IMG/VR virus record: IMGVR_UViG_3300032038_000011
Coordinates: 64,001 to 128,000 of that record
Length of the DNA: 64,000 bases
Origin: a virus
Lineage: Duplodnaviria; Caudoviricetes
Reading direction: 5' to 3' (one strand)
The notes below the pieces were generated by a model, which saw only the letters and a list, made by a program, of their open reading frames with translations, did no database searches and was not told where the DNA came from. How positions within the stretch are numbered: the first letter of the stretch is position 1; the number at the start of each line of letters is the position of its first letter. Below are positions 237-14,896 of this stretch, piece after piece. The position numbers were made by a program, and so were the translations under genes.

Positions 237-404
237 TCTTAATCCCTTTCTGGTTTGTGTTGTTTTCCTTCAACTTTGTGAGTATATTATACACCCGATA
301 TGGCTATTTGTCAATGCTTTTTTGTGTTAAGTATATATAAATTACACTATACGTTTAGTCTAATTAACATTCGCTAAAAGAAAAGCGCCCCGAAGGGCGC
401 TGGA

Positions 405-749
405 TTAGGTGCGGCGGGAGTAGGTGTTATTGCCGCCATTATCGGGGCGATGAACCTCAACCTCGTCCTGCCAGAGGTTAAGCATACCATACCGCATCTT
501 GCTTGCGGTGAAGGTGTCGGGCATATCGGCACTGACGGCATCCCAAAGGTCCTTCACGGTCATCGGCTTGTCCCACGCGGCGCAAGCCATCAGGGCATCG
601 TGCGCGGCGTTATACAGTTCAGTATTAGCCCGCGACTTTGCGGTGGTACGCTCCCACTCGGCGTTGACTTCATCACGAAGCACAGACAGGTCAACAGTGT
701 TGTCGCCGTTCAGGTAGTTCTTCATCATCTCAAGAGTAGACTTCTTCAT
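405..749 (-). CDS. Hypothetical protein, possibly winged-helix DNA-binding (114 aa)
   Basis: RBS GAAAGGA, own promoter and terminator; KPMTVKDLW...ASKMRYGM pattern suggests wHTH (inference). Confidence 0.75.
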   Translation of the reverse strand: MKKSTLEMMKNYLNGDNTVDLSVLRDEVNAEWERTTAKSRANTELYNAAHDALMACAAWDKPMTVKDLWDAVSADMPDTFTASKMRYGMLNLWQDEVEVHRPDNGGNNTYSRRT

Positions 750-841
750 AGGGCATTAATTCCTTTCTCGTTTGTAGGGTGTCGTTCCCTTTGATGTATT
801 TATTATAGCACTGATTGGCTATAATGTTAAGTTAAGAGTTC

Positions 842-959
842 GTTAAAGGGGTTCGTGCGTTCCTCAAGGTTTAACCTTGCTTCTCTGTTTAACAGAGTGA
901 CATACTATTGCGACTTTCAACCGCCGCCCCACGGGTCTGTGGCTCAGAACCCCTTTAAC
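842..959 (-). ncRNA. Candidate ~118-nt structured small RNA
   Basis: Perfect promoter (-10 966-971, -35 989-994) puts the start at ~959. 13-bp terminal stem GTTAAAGGGGTTC/GAACCCCTTTAAC, four internal hairpins, no RBS or ORF. Confidence 0.7.
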
Positions 960-1070
960 ATCTTTATTATACCACGATTTCCAAACTTTGTCAAGTTAAG
1001 ATTTCGTGACGCCGTTTTTACGTGGGCTTTCTTATTAAAGTAGCACACCACTACAGGCAGCGGCCCTGTC

Positions 1071-1113
1071 TGGTGAGGGTGGCGGGAATCGAACCCGCGG
1101 TACCTTCGCCCTC
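1071..1113 (-). ncRNA. tRNA 3' fragment / minihelix-like RNA (acceptor + T arm + CCA, no D or anticodon arm)
   Basis: Minus strand GAGGGCG-AAGGTACC-GCGGG-TTCGATT-CCCGC-CACCCTC-A-CCA; own promoter at 1125-1153. Confidence 0.7.
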
Positions 1114-1187
1114 TTGACAGTAACAGTATATCAAAAATTGAACTAAAAGTCAAGTAATTTTTATGTAAACTAAAATGTACGTGCGAT

Positions 1188-1610
1188 TTAATTAACAAAT
1201 AATTTATCAAATGAATAATCCTTAAAATATTTAGAATTATTATTTTGATTATTTAACGGTTCTCTAATTCTTAATCTAATTTGCTTTTTATCTCCAATAT
1301 CTTCTATTGGAACAATTGCGATTAAATCATAAGTTTGATTTACAAAAACGAAATAATCTACCTCTCCAATATAAGTAGATAAGTTTTTATTTGTGGTATG
1401 ATTTGTAGAACTACGAGTATAACAACAAATAGCACCATTTTGTTCTTCATTACAAGTTTTAACTTGTATTCTATTGAATTTACCATTAAATTCTGCTATC
1501 ATATCATAGCGTTCATTATCTCCCCAAGGAATACAAACAGGAATATTATATTTTTGAAATTCATATAGTGCTTTTGCTTCCGATAATTGGCCTTTTGTTT
1601 TAGTATTCAT
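1188..1610 (-). CDS. PD-(D/E)XK homing endonuclease (group I intron-associated / I-Ssp6803I-like family), free-standing
   Basis: MNTKTKGQLSE...PWGDNERYDMI...RIQVKT motif pattern; adjacent to a tRNA. Confidence 0.85.
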   Translation of the reverse strand: MNTKTKGQLSEAKALYEFQKYNIPVCIPWGDNERYDMIAEFNGKFNRIQVKTCNEEQNGAICCYTRSSTNHTTNKNLSTYIGEVDYFVFVNQTYDLIAIVPIEDIGDKKQIRLRIREPLNNQNNNSKYFKDYSFDKLFVN

Positions 1611-1693
1611 ATTATCACTCCTATGATAAATAAAATTAAGGGCTGGCGTAGGAGCGCCTTATCTCATTAGTCGCGAACTAATGCTACCCCTGA

Positions 1694-1768
1694 TGGTGGG
1701 GATAGTGGGAGTCGGACCCACCGTACCGAAATTAAAAGTTTCGTGCCATACCGCTTGGCTATATCCCC
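1694..1768 (-). tRNA. tRNA-Lys(UUU) with encoded CCA
   Basis: GGGGATA/TATCCCC acceptor stem; GCC-AAGCGGTAT-GGC D arm; CGAAA-CTTTTAA-TTTCG anticodon arm; GTGGG-TCCGACT-CCCAC T arm; ACCA end. Confidence 0.88.
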
Positions 1769-1789
1769 ATACCACTTGGCTACACCCTC
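1767..1789 (-). pseudogene. tRNA 5' fragment (acceptor 5' strand + D arm)
   Basis: GAGGGTG-TA-GCCAAGTGGTATGG immediately upstream of tRNA-Lys; GAGGGTG is the exact complement of CACCCTC in the 1071-1113 fragment. Confidence 0.75.
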
Positions 1790-2019
1790 ATAAGTTTTGG
1801 GAGTTCCTTTCCTCTCCCTCAACTGTAATTATTATAGCAGAATTAGAATGAAATGTCAAGTATTGGGATAGTTAAGATTTGGAAAATTAGAAATTACGGG
1901 ATTTCTAATTAAAATGAAATTAACAGAAAAAAGTATTGACAAGGAAATGAAATTCTGCTATAATAATAACTGTCAAGAGGACAAGGAAAAGTCCTAAAAA
2001 CCAGAAAGGATTTCAACTT

Positions 2020-2322
2020 ATGGCTATGACTGCTGCTGAAATGAAGGCTACTGCTCGTCAGGCAACTATCGCGGCTATTATGCCGTCCCTCCAGGAAAAC
2101 AACGCAATTAAGTTTGCGGACGGTTCCTTCGCTATCCTTCAGAATGTTGAAGGTCAGGATATTTGGACGGAAGTAACCGTCAAGTCCAAGGCTTACAAGG
2201 ATACCAAGGTATCCAAGGCGTTCAATCCGCGCGAAGCGGCGCAGGCGTGGGAAGCCGAACGTCAGATTAAGGCAGATAATAAGGCTGCCAAAGAAGCCGA
2301 AAAGGCGGCGAAGAAGGCGTAA
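2020..2322 (+). CDS. Hypothetical protein (100 aa), probable paralogue of 2840-3295
   Basis: Own rightward promoter and GAAAGGA RBS; similar Ala/Lys-rich C-terminal helix and shared leader AAACCAGAAAGGA. Confidence 0.85.
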   Translation: MAMTAAEMKATARQATIAAIMPSLQENNAIKFADGSFAILQNVEGQDIWTEVTVKSKAYKDTKVSKAFNPREAAQAWEAERQIKADNKAAKEAEKAAKKA

Positions 2323-2396
2323 GCCTTCTTCTTTTAATTTATTGTAAATTAGGTTGAACGTATAATATAATTTACATATAGTTAAAATAATAAGGA

Positions 2397-2588
2397 TTAA
2401 ATCCTTATTATCATTCTTTCTTTTTCTTTACTATAACGATAAGATTTTACTTCTTTATATTTAAGTTTGTCAGGAATTTCACTAACTAAACCAACGTATA
2501 AAGCGCGACTGGTGTTAGGGTTCCAAATAATTACACGATTAACAATAACTTTGGTTTGTGCTGCGCGGATTAATCCTGCTACAATCAT
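2397..2588 (-). CDS. Hypothetical protein (63 aa)
   Basis: AAGGAGA RBS; stop/start overlap with the upstream gene. Confidence 0.7.
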   Translation of the reverse strand: MIVAGLIRAAQTKVIVNRVIIWNPNTSRALYVGLVSEIPDKLKYKEVKSYRYSKEKERMIIRI

Positions 2589-2725
2589 TATTTATCTCCT
2601 TTCATAGCTTCACGACAAATCTGCTTCCCTTCTTTACGTTCTTGTTTTTTATTTTTCTTCTTTGCGGGCATCACAGAAGGGCGATAGCCACACCAAGTTT
2701 CACGGTTCTGATTTTTCTTTTCCAT
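2588..2725 (-). CDS. Small basic hypothetical protein (45 aa)
   Basis: GAGAGGGA RBS before MEKKNQ; own promoter. Confidence 0.7.
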   Translation of the reverse strand: MEKKNQNRETWCGYRPSVMPAKKKNKKQERKEGKQICREAMKGDK

Positions 2726-2839
2726 TATATTCCCTCTCTTTCTATAAATAGTATATACTATTTTCTTCAATAAGTCAAGTTAATTATTTGTAATATAGAT
2801 TAAACGTACAGTGTAATTAACATAGAAATAAAGTGACGG

Positions 2840-3295
2840 TTAAACCGTCACTTCGTGGGGCAGGAACTGATTGTTATCGTCTTTTTCTTCTTCTTCAGGG
2901 TCAGGTGCGTGAATCATAGCCTGAAGCCCTTCGGTGTTGAGTTTCTTAATCGTCTTTTTCGCGGCGCGCTTGCGCTCCTTTTCTGCTGCTTCGCGCTCGG
3001 CCTTTTCCTTGCGCTTTGCTGCTTTGTCAGCCTTATCGGCCTTGACAAGTTCCCATTCATCATGGGCTGCGTAACCGTCATAGGCATCATAACCGCCGTC
3101 ACCATTGCGGGAGCCGCGCGGAATAGATACCTTAATCAGCGCAAACTTTTCATTGCCTTCGGCATCGACAACAGGCATAGCGAGTTCGCTTGCGCTAACA
3201 TCCATCACATCAGCGTCGTAGTGTTCAGACAGAGCGGCGGTCAGAACGGCAAGAACATCATTGCGAATCGCGGTTTCCAGTGCTGCTTGTGTCAT
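2840..3295 (-). CDS. Hypothetical protein (151 aa)
   Basis: GAAAGGA RBS, own promoter and terminator hairpin. Confidence 0.85.
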   Translation of the reverse strand: MTQAALETAIRNDVLAVLTAALSEHYDADVMDVSASELAMPVVDAEGNEKFALIKVSIPRGSRNGDGGYDAYDGYAAHDEWELVKADKADKAAKRKEKAEREAAEKERKRAAKKTIKKLNTEGLQAMIHAPDPEEEEKDDNNQFLPHEVTV

Positions 3296-3370
3296 AGCAT
3301 TTCCTTTCTGGTTTAGTGTTGTCCTTCACTTTGTAGGTATATTATAGCAGATTTGAGAGGAGAAGTCAAG

Positions 3371-3439
3371 TTAAATAATTGTTACGATAATTGCGGAAAC
3401 AATCAAAATGTCAACGGCAAGAACCAAATAGATAAACAT
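3371..3439 (-). CDS. 22-aa single-transmembrane micropeptide
   Basis: AAAGGAGA RBS; MFIYLVLAVDILIVSAIIVTII*; dedicated promoter (-35 at 3491-3496). Confidence 0.65.
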   Translation of the reverse strand: MFIYLVLAVDILIVSAIIVTII

Positions 3440-3558
3440 TTTGTTTCTCCTTTCATTTTCTATAAATATTATAGCATAAATTCTGTTGCTTGTCAAGTAA
3501 ATTTTTTGTTAAATACATACGACGTATAATTTAATTAACTTGAAATTAAAAAAGGCGG

Positions 3559-3999
3559 TTATCCCGTCTTTATCATTTGTGAAAGAATTTCAAAAATCTT
3601 TTCCGGTTCATAAGCTCCATTTCCCCACGCTGTGCGGTTTCTTTCTTCATCATCAAAAAGAATCCCGCCGCCTGTTACTGTGAGTTTATTTGTGCCATAA
3701 CGTTCAATTTTAATATAATCAAAATTAACGGAAGGCAAATGTTTTGCTAACCAGTAAAATTTTGCGATACTGATTTTAACCAAAAAATCGTCCGAGCCGT
3801 GTTTAGAACCCCATGAAATAATACCGATTTCATGGCCTTGGGTTTGTAGTTTGTTAAGATAACGAGCAAGCAAACTCATGTTAATAAGAGGTTTTGCCGC
3901 ATTATAAGGCGTGGTATCTTCATTTTGAAGATAATTCAACCAACCTTCAACGCCGTAAAAATCCGCAATAGTTCCATCCATATCCAACCAAATCTTCAT
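3559..3999 (-). CDS. HAD-superfamily 5'(3')-deoxyribonucleotidase-like phosphatase
   Basis: Motif I LDMDGTIADF, conserved K, motif IV ILFDD. Confidence 0.8.
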   Translation of the reverse strand: MKIWLDMDGTIADFYGVEGWLNYLQNEDTTPYNAAKPLINMSLLARYLNKLQTQGHEIGIISWGSKHGSDDFLVKISIAKFYWLAKHLPSVNFDYIKIERYGTNKLTVTGGGILFDDEERNRTAWGNGAYEPEKIFEILSQMIKTG

Positions 4000-4117
4000 A
4001 ACACAAAACCCCTCTCATTTGATGTATTAAGTATAACATATATGGATTAAGAAGTCAAGTTAAATGTTTGTTATTTAGATTGGACGTTTAACCTAATTTA
4101 CATATAATTAAAGTGGA

Positions 4118-4489
4118 TTATTCATCCACTTTAACCCATTCCATTGTGCGTGTATCATATCTAAACAGACCGACCGCGCAACTAAAATCTTCATTATATA
4201 TACATGCGCTGATATTTTCACGAATAAACTCTGTTTCATCATCTGTGAAACTACCATTTCTTCGACAAAAGACACAACAACCATAGGCATCATCAAGCCA
4301 TTTTATCCAATCTTCAACATCAGGAGAAGAGCCAGGAGGAAGAATTTCTTCCATATTTTTATCATAGAAAGAAATTTTATTAGCAATACTTAATGCTAAA
4401 CCATAACCGATATTTTCATACTGTATACACGCATGGTAGTTATCAAATTCTTTATCATCATAAGCATAATACATAGTAACCTCGCGCAT
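4118..4489 (-). CDS. Hypothetical protein (123 aa)
   Basis: AGAGGA RBS, own promoter, bounded by 34-bp sites. Confidence 0.8.
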   Translation of the reverse strand: MREVTMYYAYDDKEFDNYHACIQYENIGYGLALSIANKISFYDKNMEEILPPGSSPDVEDWIKWLDDAYGCCVFCRRNGSFTDDETEFIRENISACIYNEDFSCAVGLFRYDTRTMEWVKVDE

Positions 4490-4613
4490 AATTTATATCC
4501 TCTTTCATTTGATGTATATATTATATGCCATTTAGAATAAAATGTCAAGTTAAAATATTATTATATAAAAGAGACGTATAGTTTAATTAACATTTATATA
4601 ATAAAAAACGCGG

Positions 4614-4793
4614 TTATTGTTCCGCGTTATAGAATACCAGTAAATCAATAGCATTATTGATTTCAGTTATTGCTTTATTAAGACTTCGCTTGGCTTCGGT
4701 TTCGTAATGTCCCGCGTCTTGCGTTATAATATCATCAATAGTCATATCACAATAGTCTCGTGCGCGAATAAGAAGTTCAATATCATATTTCAT
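4614..4793 (-). CDS. Hypothetical protein (59 aa)
   Basis: AAGGAGA RBS before MKYDIEL. Confidence 0.7.
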   Translation of the reverse strand: MKYDIELLIRARDYCDMTIDDIITQDAGHYETEAKRSLNKAITEINNAIDLLVFYNAEQ

Positions 4794-4794
4794 A

Positions 4795-4980
4795 TTATTT
4801 ATTCTCCTTCCATTTTTCATATACTCTTACAAGTTGGTCTGCTGTAGCTAAAAGAGAATAGACATCTATTGCGTCTTGACTATTACCTTCAAAATCACTT
4901 GACAGCTCATTTTCCAGCTGATATAGTGTACGAATAGTAGCTTTCAGCTTTTCCAGCTGTTCAGTAGTAAGTTTCTTCAT
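4795..4980 (-). CDS. Hypothetical helical protein (61 aa)
   Basis: GGAG RBS before MKKLTTE; own promoter. Confidence 0.7.
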   Translation of the reverse strand: MKKLTTEQLEKLKATIRTLYQLENELSSDFEGNSQDAIDVYSLLATADQLVRVYEKWKENK

Positions 4981-5304
4981 ATCCAGCTCCAGCTCCTCTC
5001 TTTTTTCTATATATATTATACCAGCTTCCAGCTCAGAAGTCAAGTTAATAATAGGTTAAGTTCAGCTAAAATTAGGTAGCACTAACAGACCCGATACACG
5101 GGCCGCTTTACTTAATTTTAACAGCATCTTAACCAAAAATCAATCACTCCTTAACACAGTCATAACAATTCACCTTCTTTCCTATAATATTCCACCATTA
5201 TTAATTATACCAAATTTCGCAAGGGTTGTCAAGTTAAATGTTCGTAAATTAGAGTAGCCGGATAGTCTAATTTACATTAGCTTAAAAAAGAATAGGCCAT
5301 TGGC

Positions 5305-5592
5305 CTATTCCCAATCTTCATCAAAATTTAACATTTCCAAATCTTCATCGAAGAAGAGTTCCATGGCCTCTTCAAGTTCCTTAACGCCATCTTCATCAAA
5401 GATGTGGTTAATTCTGTCCATGTCGCGGGCCATGTGGTAAATCATGCGCCATGCGGTCTTAATGTTCTTTTTACGTCCATCTCTGAACCAATAGTCGTCG
5501 GCGTCAAAGTCCCACATGTTGATTTCAAACATGCCATTGTCGTAAATGTAACCATAAACCAAAACGTGGCGAATCTGAATCTGGAAAAACAT
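5305..5592 (-). CDS. Acidic hypothetical protein (95 aa)
   Basis: GAGAGGAG RBS, promoter and terminator; very acidic C-terminus. Confidence 0.8.
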   Translation of the reverse strand: MFFQIQIRHVLVYGYIYDNGMFEINMWDFDADDYWFRDGRKKNIKTAWRMIYHMARDMDRINHIFDEDGVKELEEAMELFFDEDLEMLNFDEDWE

Positions 5593-5755
5593 TGTAAAAT
5601 CTCCTCTCATGTTGTCGTTATTGTTGAACCGTTTTTTATTTTATTATACCACAAAAAAATGATTTGTCAATAGTTTTTCTATGTTAAAATTACGTATATT
5701 AGAATATCCGGATATTCTAATTAACATAAAAATAAAAGAAGGCAGGCGCCTTCTT

Positions 5756-5938
5756 TTAATCCTCATAGGTGTCAGTGCCTGCCTGCCGGATTGCCCACCG
5801 CTTTGCGCCGGCGATAGTTTTGAATCCTTTGCCAAGTCGCCAGCCCCAAGTACCACCTTCACCAACGTGATACTTGCCATCAGGCATCGGGGTGTCATCC
5901 CAAGTATAGTAATGTTCGCGATTGCCGACTGTGTTCAT
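5756..5938 (-). CDS. Hypothetical protein (60 aa), paralogue of 11610-11804
   Basis: AAGGAGGT RBS; shares HYYTxDxxPxxDGKYHVGEG...KTxxGAKxWA. Confidence 0.85.
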   Translation of the reverse strand: MNTVGNREHYYTWDDTPMPDGKYHVGEGGTWGWRLGKGFKTIAGAKRWAIRQAGTDTYED

Positions 5939-6061
5939 GTGAGTTACCTCCTTCATTTGATGATTTATTATAACATGGATAGGGGTATATTGTCAAGTTA
6001 AAAGTGCGTAAATTAGATGATACGTATCTTCTAATTTACATATAGTCAACATAAAAGGGGA

Positions 6062-6280
6062 TTAACCCCTTATATGTTGCGAATTGAAAGCGGCAACAAT
6101 CTCCCGAATTGTGTCGTTTTCGTTAAGAAGCGCCAAAGTACAAAATACAACTTCGGGGTTCTCGATGTAAATGATATACGCGCCCAAAGCGGCGTTAAAG
6201 TCGTTTGTATATTCTACTTTGACTTCTTCTTCTTTGGTGTACATGGTAACAAACTTGGTGGTAATGCTGTACTTTTTCAT
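6062..6280 (-). CDS. Hypothetical protein (72 aa)
   Basis: AAGGGAG RBS; promoter and site-bounded cassette. Confidence 0.8.
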   Translation of the reverse strand: MKKYSITTKFVTMYTKEEEVKVEYTNDFNAALGAYIIYIENPEVVFCTLALLNENDTIREIVAAFNSQHIRG

Positions 6281-6400
6281 GGTATTAACTCCCTTCATTT
6301 GATGATTTATTATAGCATGAATTGACGCAGTTTGTCAAGTTAATTGTGCGTAAATTAGATAGTACGGTTATTCTAATTTACATGGAATTAAAAGAAGGGA

Positions 6401-6625
6401 TTAAATCCCCTCTTTGAAAGTCGTGACTTCGATATACATGAAATTTGCTTCGTTGGTATCGGGGTCACGATAGTAAATAACTGTAACTGTGTCACCATAA
6501 TCAAATCCTTCACACAGGTAGCCACAAATCGAAAGACGATTCATAGCAGCGGCGATAGCATGGTTCATGGTATCGCGGGCGGCGATGATTTCACTGTTCT
6601 CATGGATAACGAAAATGCTCTTCAT
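6401..6625 (-). CDS. Hypothetical protein (74 aa), probable paralogue of 7113-7361
   Basis: AAGGGGGT RBS; similar MxxAIxxA...Y..xxFxYGxxxTxIxY pattern. Confidence 0.8.
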   Translation of the reverse strand: MKSIFVIHENSEIIAARDTMNHAIAAAMNRLSICGYLCEGFDYGDTVTVIYYRDPDTNEANFMYIEVTTFKEGI

Positions 6626-6763
6626 AGGTTTATACCCCCTTCATTTGATGGATATATTATACCATTTTTCAGTGTTAAAAAACAAGCAATTGGAAGTTAA
6701 ACGTTAGTAAATTAGAATCTACGTTTATTCTAATTTACATATACTTAATAAAGAAGTGGAGGA

Positions 6764-6982
6764 TTAATCCTCCACGTAAAATCGCGGGTAGCGACCGACC
6801 TCGCTGTTATTACAGTTATAATAACAAAATTCGTTGTAGAAATTGTTAAAATTGCGGAACATCCAACCGGGTTTCATGTGGACAGCGAATTGCGAATCAG
6901 GACGCATATTCGCGGGTACAATGATGAACGGCTTTTTTTGTTCGTAGAGTTTACGGGCCTGCACTTTGTTAATCTGTTTCAT
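6764..6982 (-). CDS. Hypothetical protein (72 aa)
   Basis: GAGAGGAGG RBS; FYNEFCYYNCNNSEVGRYPRFY C-terminus. Confidence 0.8.
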   Translation of the reverse strand: MKQINKVQARKLYEQKKPFIIVPANMRPDSQFAVHMKPGWMFRNFNNFYNEFCYYNCNNSEVGRYPRFYVED

Positions 6983-7112
6983 GGGATTGCCTCCTCTCAA
7001 TTTCTGTATATATTATAATACATAAAAAGCTATATGTCAAGTTAAACATTTGTAAATTAGACTGGCCGTATAGTCTAATTTACATACAGATAATAAAATG
7101 GGCTTGCGCCCA

Positions 7113-7361
7113 TTAGGTTTCAAGTTCGGCTTCGGTGATAACAATTGTGCCGGTTTCGGTTGTGCTTTCAGAGTACAAGCGCGGGACAAAGACTTTGTAT
7201 TCGATGGTAGTGTAGCCTTCGCCATAGGCGAAGTCAGTTACTTCATAGTTGGCATGGTGCGCGTATTGGATAGCGTTTTTGATGGCGCTGTCCATATCTT
7301 TGCAGATGACAACAACATCGGCCTCGCGGTTATCATAGACGACATACAGGAACTTACTCAT
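7113..7361 (-). CDS. Hypothetical protein (82 aa)
   Basis: AAGGAGGT RBS, promoter, GCAA-loop terminator. Confidence 0.8.
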   Translation of the reverse strand: MSKFLYVVYDNREADVVVICKDMDSAIKNAIQYAHHANYEVTDFAYGEGYTTIEYKVFVPRLYSESTTETGTIVITEAELET

Positions 7362-7949
7362 GGTAGTTACCTCCTTCATTTGATGTCTTATTATACCATT
7401 TTCAATGTTAAGAAGTAAGCATGATATGATTAAACGTTTGTAAATTAGATTCTACGGTTACTCTAATTTACATTGGTATAATAAAAGCCGCGCGGTTAGC
7501 TACTCCGCGCGGTTGGCTCGTTCGCGGTCAGTGCGCCACTTCTGCCGCGGGTCAGTTCACTTACGTTACGCGGGATTATGCTACAACTGCCACGTTGCAC
7601 ATTGTCCCTTGCTCTAATAGGGTGGATTCATTGTCAAGCACCTCAAACACTATTGCAGGACATTTAATGACGATGGAGGAACGGCTGACTACTGCGGTGG
7701 CTCGTTCATTCTTTATCTCCCCTTTCGACAAGTCTATTATAACATGAGATATGGGATGTGTCAAGTTAAACGTTTGTTAATTAGATAATTTGTTTTGGGA
7801 AATGAAATAGGATTTTATTTGTAAATAATATGTTAATTTTGGGAAAAGAAATATAAAATGAAATTGGAAAAAGTTAAAGGAAAGTAAAATAAAATTGACG
7901 TTGAGTGTAATTTACATAATATTAAAATGAAATTGCGGTTTCCCGCAAT

Positions 7950-8258
7950 TTACCATGTACACATTACTTTTAACATTCCATTGTCTATTTTAATTACGGT
8001 CGAAAAACCAAGTTCTTCTAATTCTGATTTTAGACCTATTTTCAAATAATTTTGTGATTCTTCTGAAACAAGTCCCATACACAGCAGATTAAAATCATCG
8101 GCTGCGCTTTGATAGCCGGCATTAGCTGCGGCAAAATTTGCTTCGTTCATTTTATATAATACCGCAGGAACAAAATCGTTTTTAATACGATTGTATTCGG
8201 CAAGACGAGCATCAGAGGAAACCTTGCGAAGAGTAGCGGCATTGTAGATAGGCGTCAT
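7950..8258 (-). CDS. Hypothetical protein (102 aa)
   Basis: AAGGAGA RBS before MTPIYN; own promoter. Confidence 0.8.
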   Translation of the reverse strand: MTPIYNAATLRKVSSDARLAEYNRIKNDFVPAVLYKMNEANFAAANAGYQSAADDFNLLCMGLVSEESQNYLKIGLKSELEELGFSTVIKIDNGMLKVMCTW

Positions 8259-8392
8259 ATTTATAATCTCCTTTGCTTTTCTTGTATATAGTATATCATA
8301 TATATAAAAGGGCGTCAAGTTAAATGATTATTAATTAGACTATACGTTCAATGTAATTTACAGAAAAGCAAAATAAAACGCGGTTGCCCGCG

Positions 8393-8656
8393 TTAAGGTT
8401 TCTTTGTACAAAGAATAACTTTGGAGTAGTGAGTGAGATATGTAATACCGTTCATTGTAAACTGAACGACATCAGATTCGTCAAAGTCGCGCCATGACGT
8501 TACTGTGCCTTCAATAAGTTCGCCGTTGCCGAGTTCAAGAATTGCGTGGGTAAAAGTCTGGGTTGTGTCCCAACCAACTTGGCGATTGCCAACTCGGCAA
8601 GCAGTCAGCGCGAGAGCAAGGGAGAGAATGAGAACCACACAAATAATCTTCTTCAT
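8393..8656 (-). CDS. Putative lipoprotein (87 aa)
   Basis: MKK + hydrophobic stretch + LTAC lipobox. Confidence 0.8.
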   Translation of the reverse strand: MKKIICVVLILSLALALTACRVGNRQVGWDTTQTFTHAILELGNGELIEGTVTSWRDFDESDVVQFTMNGITYLTHYSKVILCTKKP

Positions 8657-8837
8657 TTTGGGATACCGTTCCTTTCTTTTTTCTTGAATTTATTATAGCA
8701 TAATTATTTTGAAATGTCAAGTTAAAAGGTTGTTAAATAGAATTGACGTTTGATGTAATTTACAATTGTTTAACTTGACATTTCGGGATTGCTATGTTAT
8801 AATGATTACAGAAATTAAGAGAGCGAGGTAATTTGAA

Positions 8838-9026
8838 ATGAAAAGAAAGTGCTACGTTGTTGAAATGAACTCCGCGCTGGATGGTCTGTTTGAACAGTTG
8901 GATGATTACGGTTTTGATTATGAATGTGAAGAGCATTGGCCCGCGCCCGGTTATATAGAAATTTACGTGCTGTATTATCCTCATGAGATTCGGGACTTGG
9001 AAAATATTTTCGCGCCGTATGTTTAA
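8838..9026 (+). CDS. Acidic hypothetical protein (62 aa)
   Basis: Rightward promoter with -35 at 8775; GAGGT RBS. Confidence 0.8.
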   Translation: MKRKCYVVEMNSALDGLFEQLDDYGFDYECEEHWPAPGYIEIYVLYYPHEIRDLENIFAPYV

Positions 9027-9106
9027 CATACGGTTTTATTTTGAAATTATGTTAATTAGAGGATACGTAGTATCTAATTTACATTGAATTAAAATTATGG
9101 GATACA

Positions 9107-9241
9107 TCAAAAGATGTATCCCTGCATCATTTCATCAAATTCTGAAAATGAAATGCCGTTTTCGTCGGGGTCAAGAATGTTCGCCTGATAGTCCCAATAA
9201 ATACGCACCTGTTCCTCAGAAGTCAGATTTTCCCACTCCAT
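9107..9241 (-). CDS. Small acidic protein (44 aa)
   Basis: GAGGT RBS before MEWENL; own promoter. Confidence 0.75.
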   Translation of the reverse strand: MEWENLTSEEQVRIYWDYQANILDPDENGISFSEFDEMMQGYIF

Positions 9242-9402
9242 ACGGGATACCTCGCTTTCGTTTGTTTGCAAGATTATTATAGCAAAAATAAAATGAAATG
9301 TCAAGTTAAATGATTATTAATTAGATTATACGTGCGGTCTAATTAACAGGAATTTAAAATAAAATTGCGAAACTTTTTATGTTTCGCAATTTGAAATTGA
9401 AA

Positions 9403-9543
9403 TTAAGGAATTAATATTTCCTTAACATCCCATTTCATTCCCGTGCAATGCGTGCGCCAATTTGCCGCATTTTGTGCCTCTTCGCGCGTGCGATAGTAGG
9501 AAGAACCTTGAAAACCACCACAATAGATTGCATACACTGTCAT
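9403..9543 (-). CDS. Small hypothetical protein (46 aa), not in the ORF track
   Basis: AAGGGGA RBS; MTVYAIYCGGFQGSSYYRTREEAQNAANWRTHCTGMKWDVKEILIP*; own promoter and terminator. Confidence 0.75.
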   Translation of the reverse strand: MTVYAIYCGGFQGSSYYRTREEAQNAANWRTHCTGMKWDVKEILIP

Positions 9544-9777
9544 TTTAGGAAAATCCCCTTTCGTTTGTTTCTGAAATTATTATATCATTTTTGAAATGAA
9601 ATGTCAAGTTATTTTTATGTAAAATAGAACTTACGTTTAATATAATTTACATAAATTTAATTTGGGTTAGTTTTGGGATTGTCTAAATATTGTCATAATA
9701 AAAACTTTAAAAAGGGTTTGATTTTGAAATTAGTTTATGATATAATATATATAGAAAAGCAAGGGAGGTTTTGGGAT

Positions 9778-9957
9778 ATGCGCGCGAAAGACTATAAGAA
9801 AAGGAATAGTTTTTCATATAAAATTAAAATGTGGTTTTATCGGCTGACTTTTCGGGATGTTATGTCTACCAGTAAAATTGTTATTATTTCTATAATAAAT
9901 TTTATAATGGCGGTTTTAGGATTCTTAATCCTCTTTTTTGGCCCGTCATTTCTTTAA
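9778..9957 (+). CDS. Small membrane protein (59 aa)
   Basis: GGGAGGT RBS; C-terminal hydrophobic segment; rightward promoter. Confidence 0.7.
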   Translation: MRAKDYKKRNSFSYKIKMWFYRLTFRDVMSTSKIVIISIINFIMAVLGFLILFFGPSFL

Positions 9958-10055
9958 GAAAATGAAATGAAATTAGGGTGTGAGGTTTCGGGAATGTAAA
10001 TTATATCATACGTATTTTATAATTAACAAAAATAAAATAAAATAAAAGGTTGGAA

Positions 10056-10355
10056 TTACTTCCAACCTTCCATATATCCTGCGTATCGAATCATAACAAT
10101 TTCATCATCGTAAATGGTAGGCGTGTCACGTTCTTCCATTATCGCGGCGACAATATCACCGCAGTCGAAATCTTCGATTCCTTGCCATATCCATTCATTG
10201 CCATTGAAGTCTACGAGAACCATAAAGTTCTGTTCGTAGTTAATTAAGTCAACTACGAAAGCTTGAGGATACTGTTCTGCGCTGGCACAAGCCACAATTC
10301 CCATAAAGATAGCACAAGCAACAACGATACACCAAACAATAACAAACTTCTTCAT
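10056..10355 (-). CDS. Putative secreted/membrane protein (99 aa)
   Basis: AAGGGAG RBS; MKK + signal-peptide-like N-terminus. Confidence 0.8.
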   Translation of the reverse strand: MKKFVIVWCIVVACAIFMGIVACASAEQYPQAFVVDLINYEQNFMVLVDFNGNEWIWQGIEDFDCGDIVAAIMEERDTPTIYDDEIVMIRYAGYMEGWK

Positions 10356-10473
10356 ACTATATACTCCCTTCATTTGATGGTATAAGTATAACATATATAT
10401 AGTATGATGTCAAGTTAAACTACTGTAAATTAGATAATACGTTTACTCTAATTAACATAGAGTTATCGCGGAT

Positions 10474-10713
10474 TTAACCTCCGCGATAATTTGGATGAAC
10501 TCGTTCGTATGCACTAACTTTTCTAAAACTGTTATATTCTTGTTGCGTTATCTCTTTGCCGAATATAACCATTTTAGTGTGCTTAACACTTGGCATTTTT
10601 CGCGCTTTGTCGCAAGCCTCAAGCAAATTATTTGCTTTGAAAACAAACTTAATTTCAGTGCTTCGACCTGTTCCGCAATGTCCACGATGACAAACGACTT
10701 CAAAGTATTTCAT
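10474..10713 (-). CDS. Hypothetical protein (79 aa)
   Basis: AAGGGAG RBS; CHRGHCG motif. Confidence 0.8.
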   Translation of the reverse strand: MKYFEVVCHRGHCGTGRSTEIKFVFKANNLLEACDKARKMPSVKHTKMVIFGKEITQQEYNSFRKVSAYERVHPNYRGG

Positions 10714-10827
10714 GGTTGTTACTCCCTTCTTTTATTCTGGTTATATTATAACATAGTTCTTGACCTTTGTCAAGTTATGTTTATGTTAATTAGGTTGGAC
10801 GTTTAATGTAATTTACATTAGCTTAAT

Positions 10828-11000
10828 TTCCAGTTCCAGCTTTCCAGCTCCATATAAATGTTAAGTTTATGTTAAAGTTTCCAGCTCCAATGTTAATTTT
10901 ATGTTAATTAGAATGCGGCTTCCAGCTCTCAGTTCCAGCTCCCAGCTCGCGGCCGCGCCGGAGCCGAGGAACTTCCAGCTCCACGCAAATTTCCAGCTCC
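10828..11000. repeat. Cluster of ~10 TTCCAGCTC-like short repeats
   Basis: ttccagct(c) recurs through 10828-11000, all in one orientation, below a promoter at 11136-11163. Confidence 0.8.
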
Positions 11001-11307
11001 CCACCGGCACGCCGACCGGAGCCGAGGCAGGCCAAGGGCGCCCGCGCGAACCGAGCAAATTTACGCATAATTCATATTCTCTTAACATAGCTTTAACAAA
11101 CCTCGCTTCTGAGGGCATATTCCCCCATCCTCTATATTATAGCAGATAAATGTTAATTGTCAAGGTAGTTTATGTTAAAAGTATGTGAATTAGATTAAAT
11201 TTAACAAAGTTAAGCTGACGTAAATTAGACTGCCCGGATAGTCTAATTTACACAGGCTTAATGTTAGTGGTGACTAACTACTATGTTAAAAAAAAGAAAA
11301 GAGGGCG

Positions 11308-11559
11308 TTAAGCCCTCTTTTCGTGGTGGCGCTCGATGTAGCGCAGGCTGTGCAGGCAATCTTTGACGGCCTCGCGCGCGGTCTCCGCTACCCACAAAAA
11401 CGTGGTCTTGACTTCCCACTCGGTCAGGTCAGTAACCTCGATGGTCCATCCCATCGCGGTCTTATTCATCGAAAGTTCAAAGTGTCCGCTCGCGCTGTCG
11501 TTGCCGTGGTCGAAAGTGTAATGGTTGGCGCTGATCTTCTGGATGTAAAGGTTCTTCAT
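11308..11559 (-). CDS. Hypothetical protein (83 aa), last gene of the GC-rich operon
   Basis: AAGGAGGAG RBS; followed by a terminator. Confidence 0.85.
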   Translation of the reverse strand: MKNLYIQKISANHYTFDHGNDSASGHFELSMNKTAMGWTIEVTDLTEWEVKTTFLWVAETAREAVKDCLHSLRYIERHHEKRA

Positions 11560-11609
11560 GATTGTCTCCTCCTTAATTTTAGGTCGTGGGAGGGCTTGCG
11601 CCCTCCCGA

Positions 11610-11804
11610 TTATTCGCGGTAGTCGTCGCGGCCGCCGTTCTTTTTGACGGCCCAGTTCTTTGCGCCTCGGGCAGTTTTGTAGACGCCCTTGTGTTCCCAG
11701 TGGTACTGGGTGCCCTCGCCCACGTGGTACTTGCCATCGCGGTCAGGCTCGGTGTCGTAGGTGTAATAGTGGTATTTGCTGCCGGTGTAGCCTGCCTTCA
11801 TCAT
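11610..11804 (-). CDS. Hypothetical protein (64 aa), paralogue of 5756-5938
   Basis: GAGAGGA RBS; shared DGKYHVGEG motif. Confidence 0.85.
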   Translation of the reverse strand: MMKAGYTGSKYHYYTYDTEPDRDGKYHVGEGTQYHWEHKGVYKTARGAKNWAVKKNGGRDDYRE

Positions 11805-11832
11805 TGTAACTTCCTCCTCTCAGGGACGGGCA

Positions 11833-12216
11833 TTAAGCCCGTCCCGTGCTCCTCAAGTATTCCTGCCAGACTCGCTCCACCTCGGCGAGGTAGTCATTGA
11901 CTACCTTGCCGGTGAAGCGCTGAGCTGCGTAGTACAACTCGCGCAGGTCGTAGTGGTGGAACGCTTCCAACACGTCCCTGCCCTCGTCGGACTGGTTCAG
12001 ATCGTAGTCCCTCAGGCTGGGAGTCAAGTCCTCGGGATGGCCGTAGTAGACCATGACCGCGAGGCGCTTCTCGGGTTCGAACTCGACGTGGCCGAAGCCG
12101 CAGTTCTCAGCCTCGGTATCGAGGTCGAAGTTCATGGAAAACTGGGCCATGCAGAACTGCTCGTCAAAGAGCAGGCCGTACTCGGTAACGGTGGTGTTGT
12201 AGTTGCAGATCATCAT
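11833..12216 (-). CDS. Hypothetical protein (127 aa)
   Basis: AAGGAGGT RBS before MMICNY; GC3-rich codons. Confidence 0.85.
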   Translation of the reverse strand: MMICNYNTTVTEYGLLFDEQFCMAQFSMNFDLDTEAENCGFGHVEFEPEKRLAVMVYYGHPEDLTPSLRDYDLNQSDEGRDVLEAFHHYDLRELYYAAQRFTGKVVNDYLAEVERVWQEYLRSTGRA

Positions 12217-12271
12217 TGTAGTAACCTCCTTGTATTTGGTCGTTATTGTAAAGCTGAGGGGCTTGCGCCCC

Positions 12272-12391
12272 TCAGTGGTTGCGGCCATGAATTACCTCAT
12301 TCATGCCTTTGATTTCTACCTCGTTCGCCTTGAACTGTTTTTCAAGGCTCCGCAGGTCCAGCACCATAGCGATTATAAACAAAGTCAACAT
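12272..12391 (-). CDS. Small protein (39 aa), not in the ORF track
   Basis: AAGGAGGT RBS; MLTLFIIAMVLDLRSLEKQFKANEVEIKGMNEVIHGRNH*; bounded by hairpins like its neighbours. Confidence 0.65.
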   Translation of the reverse strand: MLTLFIIAMVLDLRSLEKQFKANEVEIKGMNEVIHGRNH

Positions 12392-12428
12392 GTTTTTACC
12401 TCCTTCCAAAGGGTGAGGGCTTGCGCCC

Positions 12429-13001
12429 TCACTCCTTCATATCGCGGTCGATCTCGCTGGGGCAGTAGGCCGTGATCCGACCGCCGAGGCCCTTGACCTC
12501 GTCGCGGATCTTGACCTCGTTGCCGTCGGCGTCGGTGATGATGGTTACGCCGTCGATCTGAACTCGGTTCAGGCCGCCGACCCACTTCGCGCCGATGGTC
12601 TTGCAAACCACCTTCTCGAAGGTGCGCGCCCTCGGGCCGGCGCAGGGGCTGGGGTCGAGCGGCAGGTCCGAGTAGGTCCGGAACTTCTGCTCGAGCTGGC
12701 GAACCGTGATCCGGTTGCCGAAGGTCTTGCGGAACGCGGTCTCGCTGATCTTGCGAACCTTCAACACGTTGTCGCTGATCACAAGGAAGCCGGTCTCGAG
12801 GGCGCGGTCGTTGCCAACAACCTCGATCAGGGTCTGGCGGCTGACGCAAGCCAGAACCAACTTGCGGGTCGCGCCGTGAACGCCTGCGCCGTCGGCGGTC
12901 GTCATGGCGAACCAATAACGCTCGGCGTGGCGCGGGTCGTTCAGGTAGTTCAACGCGGTGAGCTTCGCGGCGGCGGCGATGGTGGGATCGTACTTCTTCA
13001 T
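12429..13001 (-). CDS. Hypothetical protein (190 aa), possible PD-(D/E)XK-fold nuclease
   Basis: AAGGAGGT RBS before MKKYDP; C-terminal FE...IDG...EVK spacing resembles the motif (inference). Confidence 0.7.
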   Translation of the reverse strand: MKKYDPTIAAAAKLTALNYLNDPRHAERYWFAMTTADGAGVHGATRKLVLACVSRQTLIEVVGNDRALETGFLVISDNVLKVRKISETAFRKTFGNRITVRQLEQKFRTYSDLPLDPSPCAGPRARTFEKVVCKTIGAKWVGGLNRVQIDGVTIITDADGNEVKIRDEVKGLGGRITAYCPSEIDRDMKE

Positions 13002-13302
13002 GGGGTTTACCTCCTTTTTTGTGGGTCGTTGTGTTTTGTGCTGGTTGGTCGTGCGGTCGGCGGTCGGGTTCAGTTGCTGCTCGCCTGTCGGGTTCATCAC
13101 TGCTCGGCGTTCACGGCTCTCACGTGCGCTGGTCTGGGCAGCTTCCTACTCCCGTCGGGGTCCTTGCGCGTCGCGTCTGGCAGCCGCGACTGGCGGTGGG
13201 CTGTTCAATTTTCAAGGTTCGCCGCTTGCTCGACCTGCTGGCCGTCCAGCCCGGCGGGTTCCTCGGGCTGCGGGGTTCTCGCTCATCCCCCCAACAGCTA
13301 TG

Positions 13303-13552: not shown

Positions 13553-14896
13553 ATGCAATATATGAAAAAGAAATACTCACTCGACTACTCTATTGAGCGA
13601 GATACCGACCGATTACACGCCGTTGAAGAAATTTTAGATACTTTGGATACCAAACCTTCCAATTCTGAATTAGAGCAAATGGCTTCCTATATTCTATATG
13701 GTAAGGATGAAGAAGGTAAAAACGCCGTACAAAGGGGCGAAACCACCGACTCCAATAAACGCTACAATAGCTTTCAACGTGCCGCGGACAAAGTCCAATC
13801 GCTTGATGAAATTTTAGAAAACCCATTAAACGACCAACAAGCCCTTCAATCGCTTGAAACCCGCTATATTTATACAAAGAAAAAACCAGCTATACATCGT
13901 CCCAAATACGATAAAAAAACTGGTGAATTAATCGATCCTGGCGATTCCGAAATTCCAGGTATGCAAGACCTTTGGGATTGTATTGACCGCCTAGATCGCA
14001 TCGTAGCAGTAAACGAAGGTAAAATTCCACCCGATGAAAATACCCAAATTTTTAAAGACTCATATCGTCTTTACCAATTAAAGCATTCCCTTATTGATAT
14101 AAGACGCCACCAATATTATCTTAAAGATGCCTACAAGCCCACCCTCCATTTTCTCGCGCTAACCCCTCCCAAAGCTCAAACTTATAATTGGGACGAAGAT
14201 TCCTATTACTGGATGCCCCTCGACAAATGGCAAGAACGCGTTAATAATGCCCTTCTACATACAATAAGTAAAAATTTAGAAGACTATGAAACACGTGAAA
14301 ATCCATACACAAAAGAAATTGAAGTAAAATGGGTAGTGCGTAAACACACATTTGATTGGGAAAACCCATCCCACATTAAAGCATTAATAAACAATTATTC
14401 AGCTATTTATATGGAGCTTAACGAAAAATTAGATAGTTGGGGGCGCACCCTTATTTATGACTTTGACCGCTATTTTGATATGTCTGGGTTTAGTGAAGCG
14501 CGCGAATACATACTAACAAGAAAAATAGACCATGCTTCTTACACCGAAATTCGAGAAGAACTTCAAGAAAAATTTGGTCTAAAATACAATGAAAACCACA
14601 TTTGTACTATTCTCGCAAAAGAAATTCCAGAAAAGATGGCGGCAACAGCTACTAAACATCGAATGCTTTTAACAACGCCAATAACAGAACGCAAACGCTG
14701 TTTTACTTGCAAGAAGTGGTTGCCGCGAAACAACTATTTTTTCGCTACCAATAATAGCCGCAAAGATAAATTTGCTTCTAATTGTAAAGAATGCGAAAAA
14801 CAAAAAAGAATAGCAAGAGGAGGTCAGTCCGCGTATGACAGACGAAATAAAGACGCGAAGATGCTTGAAGTGCAGGCAGGAGAAACCAATTCATGA
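13553..14896 (+). CDS. Phage protein with HTH-like segment and C-terminal zinc finger (447 aa)
   Basis: SYTEIREELQEKFGLKYNENHI helix pattern; CFTC...CKEC. Confidence 0.75.
   Translation: MQYMKKKYSLDYSIERDTDRLHAVEEILDTLDTKPSNSELEQMASYILYGKDEEGKNAVQRGETTDSNKRYNSFQRAADKVQSLDEILENPLNDQQALQSLETRYIYTKKKPAIHRPKYDKKTGELIDPGDSEIPGMQDLWDCIDRLDRIVAVNEGKIPPDENTQIFKDSYRLYQLKHSLIDIRRHQYYLKDAYKPTLHFLALTPPKAQTYNWDEDSYYWMPLDKWQERVNNALLHTISKNLEDYETRENPYTKEIEVKWVVRKHTFDWENPSHIKALINNYSAIYMELNEKLDSWGRTLIYDFDRYFDMSGFSEAREYILTRKIDHASYTEIREELQEKFGLKYNENHICTILAKEIPEKMAATATKHRMLLTTPITERKRCFTCKKWLPRNNYFFATNNSRKDKFASNCKECEKQKRIARGGQSAYDRRNKDAKMLEVQAGETNS

Follow-up and report, generated by a model that had tools for sequence, protein, structure and literature searches.

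Class I activators of the CRP type work from sites centred at -61.5, -71.5 and -82.5. The element described here, a dyad repeated through an array of small early genes in a rumen phage, resembles such sites in lying upstream of the -35 box, in stepping away from it by helical turns and in being able to serve two divergent promoters from one copy. It differs in that its promoters are consensus, in that it spans 52 bp and reaches -37, and in that a sixth of its copies are promoter-less. The array crosses the left edge of a stretch of 64,000 nucleotides, hereafter the window, which comprises bases 64001-128000 of a single phage record of 136,935 bp (IMG/VR record IMGVR_UViG_3300032038_000011; Duplodnaviria, Caudoviricetes); all coordinates are those of the window. 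Protein p4 of phage phi29 also binds an inverted repeat upstream of its promoters and contacts the alpha subunit of RNA polymerase, repressing the strong early promoter A2c by blocking promoter clearance and activating the weak late promoter A3 from the same kind of position (PMC4461284, which cites Monsalve et al. 1996). A systematic survey has shown that factors which stabilise RNA polymerase repress stronger promoters more (PMC11806353). The resemblance of the dyad to p4 sites is functional only: the sequences are unrelated, the single control region bound by p4 contains about four sites where the present record has 34 across the array, and no p4-like protein was found here, none having been sought.

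In T4-type phages, each small ORFan gene of a hyperplastic region comes with a terminator and a sigma-70 promoter close to consensus; these promoter early stem-loops (PeSLs) are composite modules that mark where relatives have gained, lost or swapped genes (PMC2839356, PMC4122927). Here, too, composite modules of a terminator and an early sigma-70 promoter flank ORFan genes and coincide with cassette replacement among relatives. The stem-loop of a PeSL is the terminator itself, whereas in this phage terminator and promoter are separated by a distinct dyad of 52 bp, conserved in sequence and not a hairpin, whose helical distance from the promoter is fixed; nor is the context that of a T4-type myovirus, the terminase being nearest to those of Geobacillus E3 and SPbeta-like siphoviruses. 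The SPbeta repeated elements (SPBREs) had been predicted from sequence, and long suspected, to be operators before chromatin affinity purification sequencing (ChAP-seq) found the master repressor MrpR (YopR) bound to them (PMC10516654). Like these, the dyad is a motif that recurs between genes at many promoters of a large siphovirus of Bacillota, here one distantly related to SPbeta by its terminase; SPBREs differ in measuring 15 bp and numbering about ten, and in having MrpR/YopR, of which no homologue was detected here. Lysogeny is doubtful for this phage because the record encodes no integrase. Integron attC sites are likewise imperfect inverted repeats at the boundaries of single-gene cassettes, but they conserve structure, require IntI and border promoter-less cassettes, whereas here sequence is conserved without covariation, the cassettes carry their own promoters and there is no integrase. 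UP elements, finally, are purely A/T-rich between -59 and -38, while the dyad has invariant G/C positions and is conserved to -88. Among the papers searched, nothing came closer than PeSLs, p4 and SPBREs, and phased dyads may be a widespread, little-described device by which large phages order their early genes. The array has features of two known kinds, operator arrays and PeSL-like cassettes.

The record is approximately 80% complete. Its large terminase shares about 38% identity with that of Geobacillus virus E3 and about 32% with those of SPbeta-like phages (Bacillota siphoviruses), and a megablast of the array against GenBank phages gave no match. Sequencing runs that contain parts of the window derive from bovine, sheep and goat gut metagenomes; the best of them holds at most 29% of the window's words, and the coverage of the RNA run is too low for expression to be judged. 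The array occupies 18 kb (-7036 to 11251) and holds roughly 45 open reading frames; most of its genes have their own near-consensus sigma-70/sigma-A promoter (TTGACA-17-TGnTATAAT), ribosome-binding site and intrinsic terminator, while most of the cassette genes belong to no known family. The same architecture recurs in five IMG/VR contigs and about 25 rumen metagenome contigs. This set of some 30 contigs yielded 422 sites and 369 unique promoter-site pairs, and 376 non-redundant sites served for tests of conservation; terminator, site and promoter stand together at 255 of the 376 junctions.

The core of the site is 32 bp, GTAAATTAGA-N5-CG-N5-TCTAATTTAC. An earlier note, made from the letters of the window alone, had described a site of 34 bp, which is real and corresponds to this core with one base added on each side. 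The same note had seen an extra GTTAA half-motif outside the site; it proves to be the outer block of a longer dyad of about 52 bp, TTAA-N6-GTAAATTAGA-N5-CG-N5-TCTAATTTAC-N6-TTAA. This outer TTAA, six bases beyond the core, is nearly invariant on the promoter side and more relaxed on the terminator side (TTAA 53%, ATAA 22%). All 34 copies in the record fall between -7036 and 11251, 25 of them in the window, and none lies elsewhere. Even in a search that did not require the central CG, 389 of the 391 sites recovered contained it. Where arms and flanks vary, they are just as complementary as the column compositions predict (142 and 376 non-redundant sites), with one exception at position 15/18 (ACGT versus CCGG), where the covariation is due to lineage structure: the centre is ACGT in most contigs and mainly CCGG in L008, L018/L032 and L041. 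The site thus drifts lineage by lineage, and arm variants too differ from contig to contig. Arms that vary without covariation indicate a double-stranded DNA site for a protein rather than a hairpin, and the pattern fits a symmetric or dimeric sequence-specific protein that reads double-stranded DNA and not a hairpin of RNA or single-stranded DNA. Rfam returned only the tRNA from the region and no family matching the site.

The spacing between site and promoter is rigid. All 16 pairs for which the earlier note had given a gap of 10 bp between the -35 hexamer and the 34-bp site were reproduced, as were two distant pairs, at 55 bp (site 11220) and 66 bp (right side of site 9619). The six pairs placed at 20-22 bp were likewise recovered, their range being 19-22 bp since the gap at site 7439 is 19 and not 20. 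The whole record holds 24 pairs at 10 bp (class A below) and six at 19-22 bp (class B); among the 369 unique pairs of the relatives' set the gap is 10 bp in 268, 19-22 bp in 59 and 32 bp in one or two, stray values of 17, 28 and 37 bp being miscalls (L035:929, for example, has TTGACA at a gap of 10). This fixed pattern is far from chance. In terms of the distance that separates the dyad axis from the start of the -10 hexamer, class A pairs lie at 49, 50 or 51 nt in 2, 251 and 14 cases, respectively (267 in total), class B pairs at 60, 61 or 62 nt in 12, 44 and 3 cases (59 in total), and a third class at 72 nt in one or two. With the -10 box assumed to occupy -12 to -7, the axis stands at -62.5 in class A, at -73.5 in class B and at -84.5 in the rare third step, which bears out the centres near -62 and -73 suggested before and adds a step to them.

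What is held constant is how far the axis lies from the -10 box. In class B, a gap of 22 bp goes with a spacer of 16 bp between the -35 and -10 boxes, 21 with 17, and 19-20 with 18 (r = -0.88 to -0.91); in 10,000 shuffles the sum never varied so little, and this compensation identifies the axis-to--10 distance as the conserved quantity. As class B comprises about 27 distinct sequence types, it does not descend from one inherited insertion. On the other side of the site the distance from the terminator hairpin is loose (6-21 nt, standard deviation 4.2 nt), so the rigid spacing is a property of the promoter side. The outer TTAA reaches -37, adjoining sigma region 4 and the proximal UP position, and touches the -35 box in class A. 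The 11 additional nucleotides of class B, AnWMAAAASTA, form an A-tract that resembles the proximal UP subsite, suggesting that the alpha C-terminal domain sits between the bound protein and the -35 box. The ladder of 50, 61 and 72 nt with its compensating spacers is unusually clean natural evidence for face-of-the-helix coupling of an upstream operator to RNA polymerase.

The reading that we favour, with confidence evenly balanced between right and wrong, is that the dyad is a phase-locked operator of a putative, probably phage-encoded regulator and serves early shut-off or insulation. A symmetric dimer or tetramer would dock on the double-stranded element of about 52 bp, which selection would keep on one face of the helix relative to the host-type sigma-A early promoters, so that either the alpha C-terminal domain of RNA polymerase or its sigma region 4 would be within reach of the bound protein. 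Binding might then hold the polymerase at the promoter, in the manner of phi29 p4 at A2c, and so shut off early transcription; it might occlude the UP region; or a protein sitting directly behind the terminator might insulate each unit from read-through. Two things make a negative outcome likelier than activation: the promoters already match the consensus, and they have to be active at a time when no phage protein has yet been made. Insulation would also give a function to promoter-less sites behind terminators. Activation may nevertheless apply, above all at the few promoters with a poor -35 box. In addition to this regulatory role, the shared terminator-site-promoter modules serve as seams for cassette exchange and inversion among related phages. 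If one protein reads the site, a single factor would control or insulate some thirty host-takeover genes in a widespread lineage of rumen phages, and the site itself offers a handle for fishing out the regulator.

Several observations weigh against such an operator. No helix-turn-helix, ribbon-helix-helix, AbrB or similar DNA-binding family was found among the 136 open reading frames searched with Pfam, and a six-frame search with SPbeta YopR (E <= 10) gave no MrpR/YopR homologue, though a structural homologue could escape it. Many of the pairs are orthologues or paralogues, so that the fixed spacing could in part reflect inheritance and not selection, and in three orthologous families of junctions the promoters lie 55, 66 or 82-83 bp off, in unclear phase. 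Eight array promoters lack a full site and keep the remnant TAAC-N6-TTAAC, agreeing with the earlier observation that a half-motif persists at such junctions, and about 20 strong promoters of the long minus-strand arm never had the site; all are equally good promoters. Conversely, 65 of the 376 non-redundant sites (17%) have no promoter within 35 bp, ten of these lying between convergent terminators. A fragment in an RNA library that runs from axis to axis, a single case considered further below, hints at cleavage, which the operator model does not predict, and sequence alone does not reveal the sign of regulation.

The earlier note had proposed a dimeric class I activator acting at more than 20 early promoters. 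Its geometry, the constraint on phasing and the fit of a protein to a site whose arms evolve independently have all stood up; its activating role has not fared so well. We consider unlikely the full proposal, in which a dimeric activator bound at -62.5 or -73.5 would contact the alpha C-terminal domain, bring in RNA polymerase and so turn on the early promoters together. The axis positions fall within 1-2 bp of the CRP class I series, one site serves the divergent promoter pairs at 1882 and at 8732, and about 15 unique class B promoters with a poor -35 box (TTGTTT or CTTACT) could need help. Core promoters that depend on an activator of the CRP class I kind are suboptimal, whereas most of those in the array match 11-12 of 12 consensus positions and have an extended -10; among class A promoters 129 of 268 match all 12, 78% carry the TG of the extended -10, and the mean match of the -35 box is 5.5 of 6. 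Promoters so close to consensus should have no need of an activator. Doubt about activation also arises because promoters without a site are as strong, and because sites without a promoter equal the others in conservation (17.75 versus 17.78 of 20 arm positions). The extension to -37 departs from a pure class I layout as well. Furthermore, an activator of early genes would have to be in the cell beforehand, but bacterial genomes lack the site: the strict pattern gave one match in 185,579 of them, itself a phage array fragment of 2.2 kb, although degenerate host sites would escape this search. On these grounds an operator for a host transcription factor was rejected, the strict pattern being confined, among those genomes, to that one mis-binned phage contig.

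The contig in question, L015 (JAZLEM010000151.1, 2,202 bp), was binned into an Acetobacter metagenome-assembled genome. It bears the site six times, at gaps of 10 and 20-22 bp, and has almost certainly been mis-binned, being a piece of some phage from the same lineage.

It is also conceivable, but rather improbable, that the dyad is a cassette-junction or recombination element with no part in transcription, whether used by homologous, PeSL-like exchange or driven by a nuclease, and that its distance to the -35 box was simply inherited with the module. The site is present at every type of junction, head-tail, head-head and tail-tail. Each of the plus-strand cassettes of the window (2020-2322, 8838-9026 and 9673-9957) is bounded by a site on both sides, a pattern expected after inversion between two palindromic sites, and the sharing of cassettes among relatives is mosaic. 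At 22 junctions just one flank is homologous with a relative, and the identity of the site there is intermediate between the orthologous value of 0.87 and the background of 0.42. The clearest chimera, L008:13804, joins the left half of site 5694 to the right half of site 6707 with its crossover inside an arm and not at the CG; because of it and the mixed picture at the 22 one-flank junctions, crossover at the exact axis was rejected, and crossovers do not lie consistently at the axis. Joints of metagenome contigs do fall in promoter/site modules, their short flanks making them weak evidence, and the RNA-library fragment with ends at two axes would agree with such an element as well. Of enzymes that might act on the site, the phage encodes one PD-(D/E)XK and two GIY-YIG nucleases, the PD-(D/E)XK gene being absent from relatives; no serine or tyrosine recombinase was found in the 137-kb record by Pfam on its 136 open reading frames or with the PF00239 and PF00589 profiles. 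Descent alone would leave unexplained both the compensation of gap and spacer and the 61±1 nt kept in about 27 class B sequences. As a role added to that of the favoured operator, the exchange of cassettes fits homologous swapping in the style of PeSLs (PMC4122927) and does not fit an integron-like machine.

A bolder combination, which we rate as improbable, would make the dyad dual-purpose: besides binding a phase-locked regulator of RNA polymerase, it would be cleaved exactly at its invariant C^G axis, so that promoter-gene-terminator units are released or exchanged from axis to axis. The sole direct hint comes from two contigs of 151 nt (depth 2) from the RNA-library run, both 100% identical to the window, at 10801-10951 and 11085-11235. 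The first begins at the G of the CG at the centre of site 10785, and the second finishes on the C at the centre of its neighbour, site 11220; together they look like the two mates of a 435-bp fragment cut from axis to axis. As both sites are imperfect palindromes, an artefact of the assembly graph is unlikely, and the other six contigs listed for that run all end away from sites. If this reading held, lytic rumen phages would possess an integrase-free cassette system.

The same contig ends, together with the capacity of 10-nt arms to pair, are what would recommend a folded strand, whether a hairpin of RNA or single-stranded DNA used for processing or in an attC-like fashion, or a site simply cut at its axis. 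We regard this as very unlikely: the arms show no compensatory variation in either the 142 or the 376 sites, the sites are placed after terminators and ahead of the points where transcription begins, Rfam contains no matching family, and the fragment is a single case at depth 2. The hairpin or attC-like structure was accordingly rejected, given arms without covariation and an Rfam search that finds just tRNA.

Upstream curved DNA at Bacillus phage promoters was reportedly found by McAllister and Achberger in 1989 (pmid 2543669, listed in PMC9825172) to be active only in the right rotational setting. Here a protein-free element, that is, a bidirectional UP element or curved DNA in direct contact with RNA polymerase, could account for the proximal arm and TTAA at the distal and proximal UP subsites, for the TAAC-N6-TTAAC kept at site-less promoters and for the likeness of the class B AnWMAAAASTA to the proximal subsite, but it is very unlikely to be correct, since invariant G/C positions, including the central CG at -62/-63, are unexpected of an UP element or of curvature, the distal arm (to -88) is conserved equally with the proximal one, as are promoter-less sites, and the concerted change from ACGT to CCGG by lineage points to a trans-acting reader.

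For the putative operator-binding protein of the favoured reading, the three candidates named earlier give little encouragement. No domain or family could be recognised in what 405-749 and 11308-13001 encode, and 12432-13001 has no match to a solved structure either. The gene at 13553-14896 is sigma-like instead: its product of 447 aa, which has a zinc ribbon at its C-terminus, hits the phage sigma-factor family phrog_5767 (E = 1e-20), and the gene heads the plus-strand late operon directly before the terminase. It probably encodes the late-transcription factor. Three further genes were set aside as binders, those for a 413-aa protein at the edge of the array (helicase-like by motifs), a 339-aa protein (a DEDD exonuclease by motifs) and a 348-aa protein (PcfJ-like, judged by eye only). 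The left end of the array encodes three paralogues, each about 60-70 aa in length, that have a four-cysteine zinc ribbon and an acidic tail (-6934..-6719, -4910..-4731 and -4729..-4541; L012); they match phrog_1305 ('DNA binding protein') weakly, a family that also finds matches in 4 of 14 control genomes. The product of 10474-10713 is basic, 79 aa long and highly conserved in ten related contigs. It resembles the RNA polymerase epsilon subunit RpoY (ESM Atlas score 0.86, a lead only) and could be an RNA polymerase-binding mimic or inhibitor.

Within the window most sites serve a single minus-strand promoter in class A geometry. Those at 1165..1196 (-35 1148-1153, -10 1125-1130) and 2790..2821 (-35 2773-2778, -10 2750-2755) place the axis at -62.5. 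The same class includes 3508..3539 (-35 3491-3496, -10 3468-3473), 4070..4101 (-35 4053-4058, -10 4030-4035), the degenerate dyad at 4560..4591 (-35 4543-4548, -10 4520-4525), the dyad with a CCGG centre at 5244..5275 (-35 5227-5232, -10 5204-5209), 7052..7083 (-35 7035-7040, -10 7012-7017), 8330..8361 (-35 8313-8318, -10 8290-8295), 9316..9347 (-35 9299-9304, -10 9276-9281), 10425..10456 (-35 10408-10413, -10 10385-10390) and 10785..10816 (-35 10768-10773, -10 10745-10750), at whose axis, 10801, one RNA-library contig starts. At 6008..6039 (-35 5991-5996, -10 5967-5972) and 6350..6381 (-35 6333-6338, -10 6309-6314), also on the minus strand, a spacer of 18 bp shifts the axis to -63.5. The dyad at 8732..8763 is divergent and class A on both sides, with minus-strand boxes at 8715-8720 (-35) and 8692-8697 (-10) and plus-strand boxes at 8775-8780 and 8798-8803. 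At 9619..9650 the left promoter is class A (-35 9602-9607, -10 9579-9584), and the right one, on the plus strand at 9718-9746, lies 66 bp off.

Class B is represented on the minus strand by 337..368 (-35 309-314, -10 286-291) and 5694..5725 (-35 5665-5670, -10 5643-5648; gap 22 bp, spacer 16 bp), both with the axis at -73.5, and by the divergent dyad at 1882..1913, which is class B on both sides and has its axis at -73.5 from each (minus strand, -35 1854-1859 and -10 1831-1836; plus strand, -35 1936-1941 and -10 1959-1964). Two further class B sites accompany weak -35 boxes and extended -10 boxes: 6707..6738 (TTGTTT 6680-6685, -10 6656-6661; axis -73.5) and 7440..7471 (CTTACT 7414-7419, -10 7390-7395; axis -72.5). 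Promoter-less dyads lie between convergent terminators at 2344..2375, flanked by genes 2020-2322 (plus strand) and 2397-2588 (minus strand), and at 9051..9082, and a third occupies the tail-to-tail junction at 9996..10027. The dyad at 7884..7915 has no proximal promoter; in relatives the promoter is 82-83 bp off, and a stranded half-site (7775-7789) stands beside the promoter at 7736-7764. At the last dyad of the array, 11220..11251, the nearest promoter is 55 bp off (-35 11158-11163) and the second RNA-library contig ends at the axis, 11235. Among promoters without a full site, the minus-strand one at 802..830 keeps upstream of its -35 box only TAAC-N6-TTAAC, and the same remnant is found at 966-994, 3341-3369, 5015-5043 and 7736-7764.

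Some features of the array are of interest apart from the dyad. The PD-(D/E)XK endonuclease gene (PF11645, 1188-1610), which has its own promoter and site, lies between a tRNA-Lys gene (1694-1768) and a tRNA-like fragment (about 1040-1110), and metagenome contigs of relatives join 1103 to 1767 and lack the gene; the stretch 1040-1768 has the look of a homing-type element inserted next to a tRNA gene or inside one. G+C-rich cassettes occur at 405-749, 2840-3295, 5756-5956 and 11300-13100, the stretch of 11-13 kb having 52-59% G+C against about 30% for the phage as a whole. All are equipped with the standard AT-rich promoter and site modules, suggesting that they are genes acquired from elsewhere. 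Short repeated words, TTTGGGAA/TTTTGGGA and ATGAAAT, are found at 7785-7870, 9655-9700 and 9950-9995, around the plus-strand cassettes and the broken junction 7764-7884. Runs of the words TTCCAGCT/CCAGCTCC lie beside two junctions, at 4975-5040 and 10820-11000, the second being followed by a very G+C-rich stretch. Beyond the array, the late (structural) operon holds one open reading frame of 5,973 codons (28066-45987).

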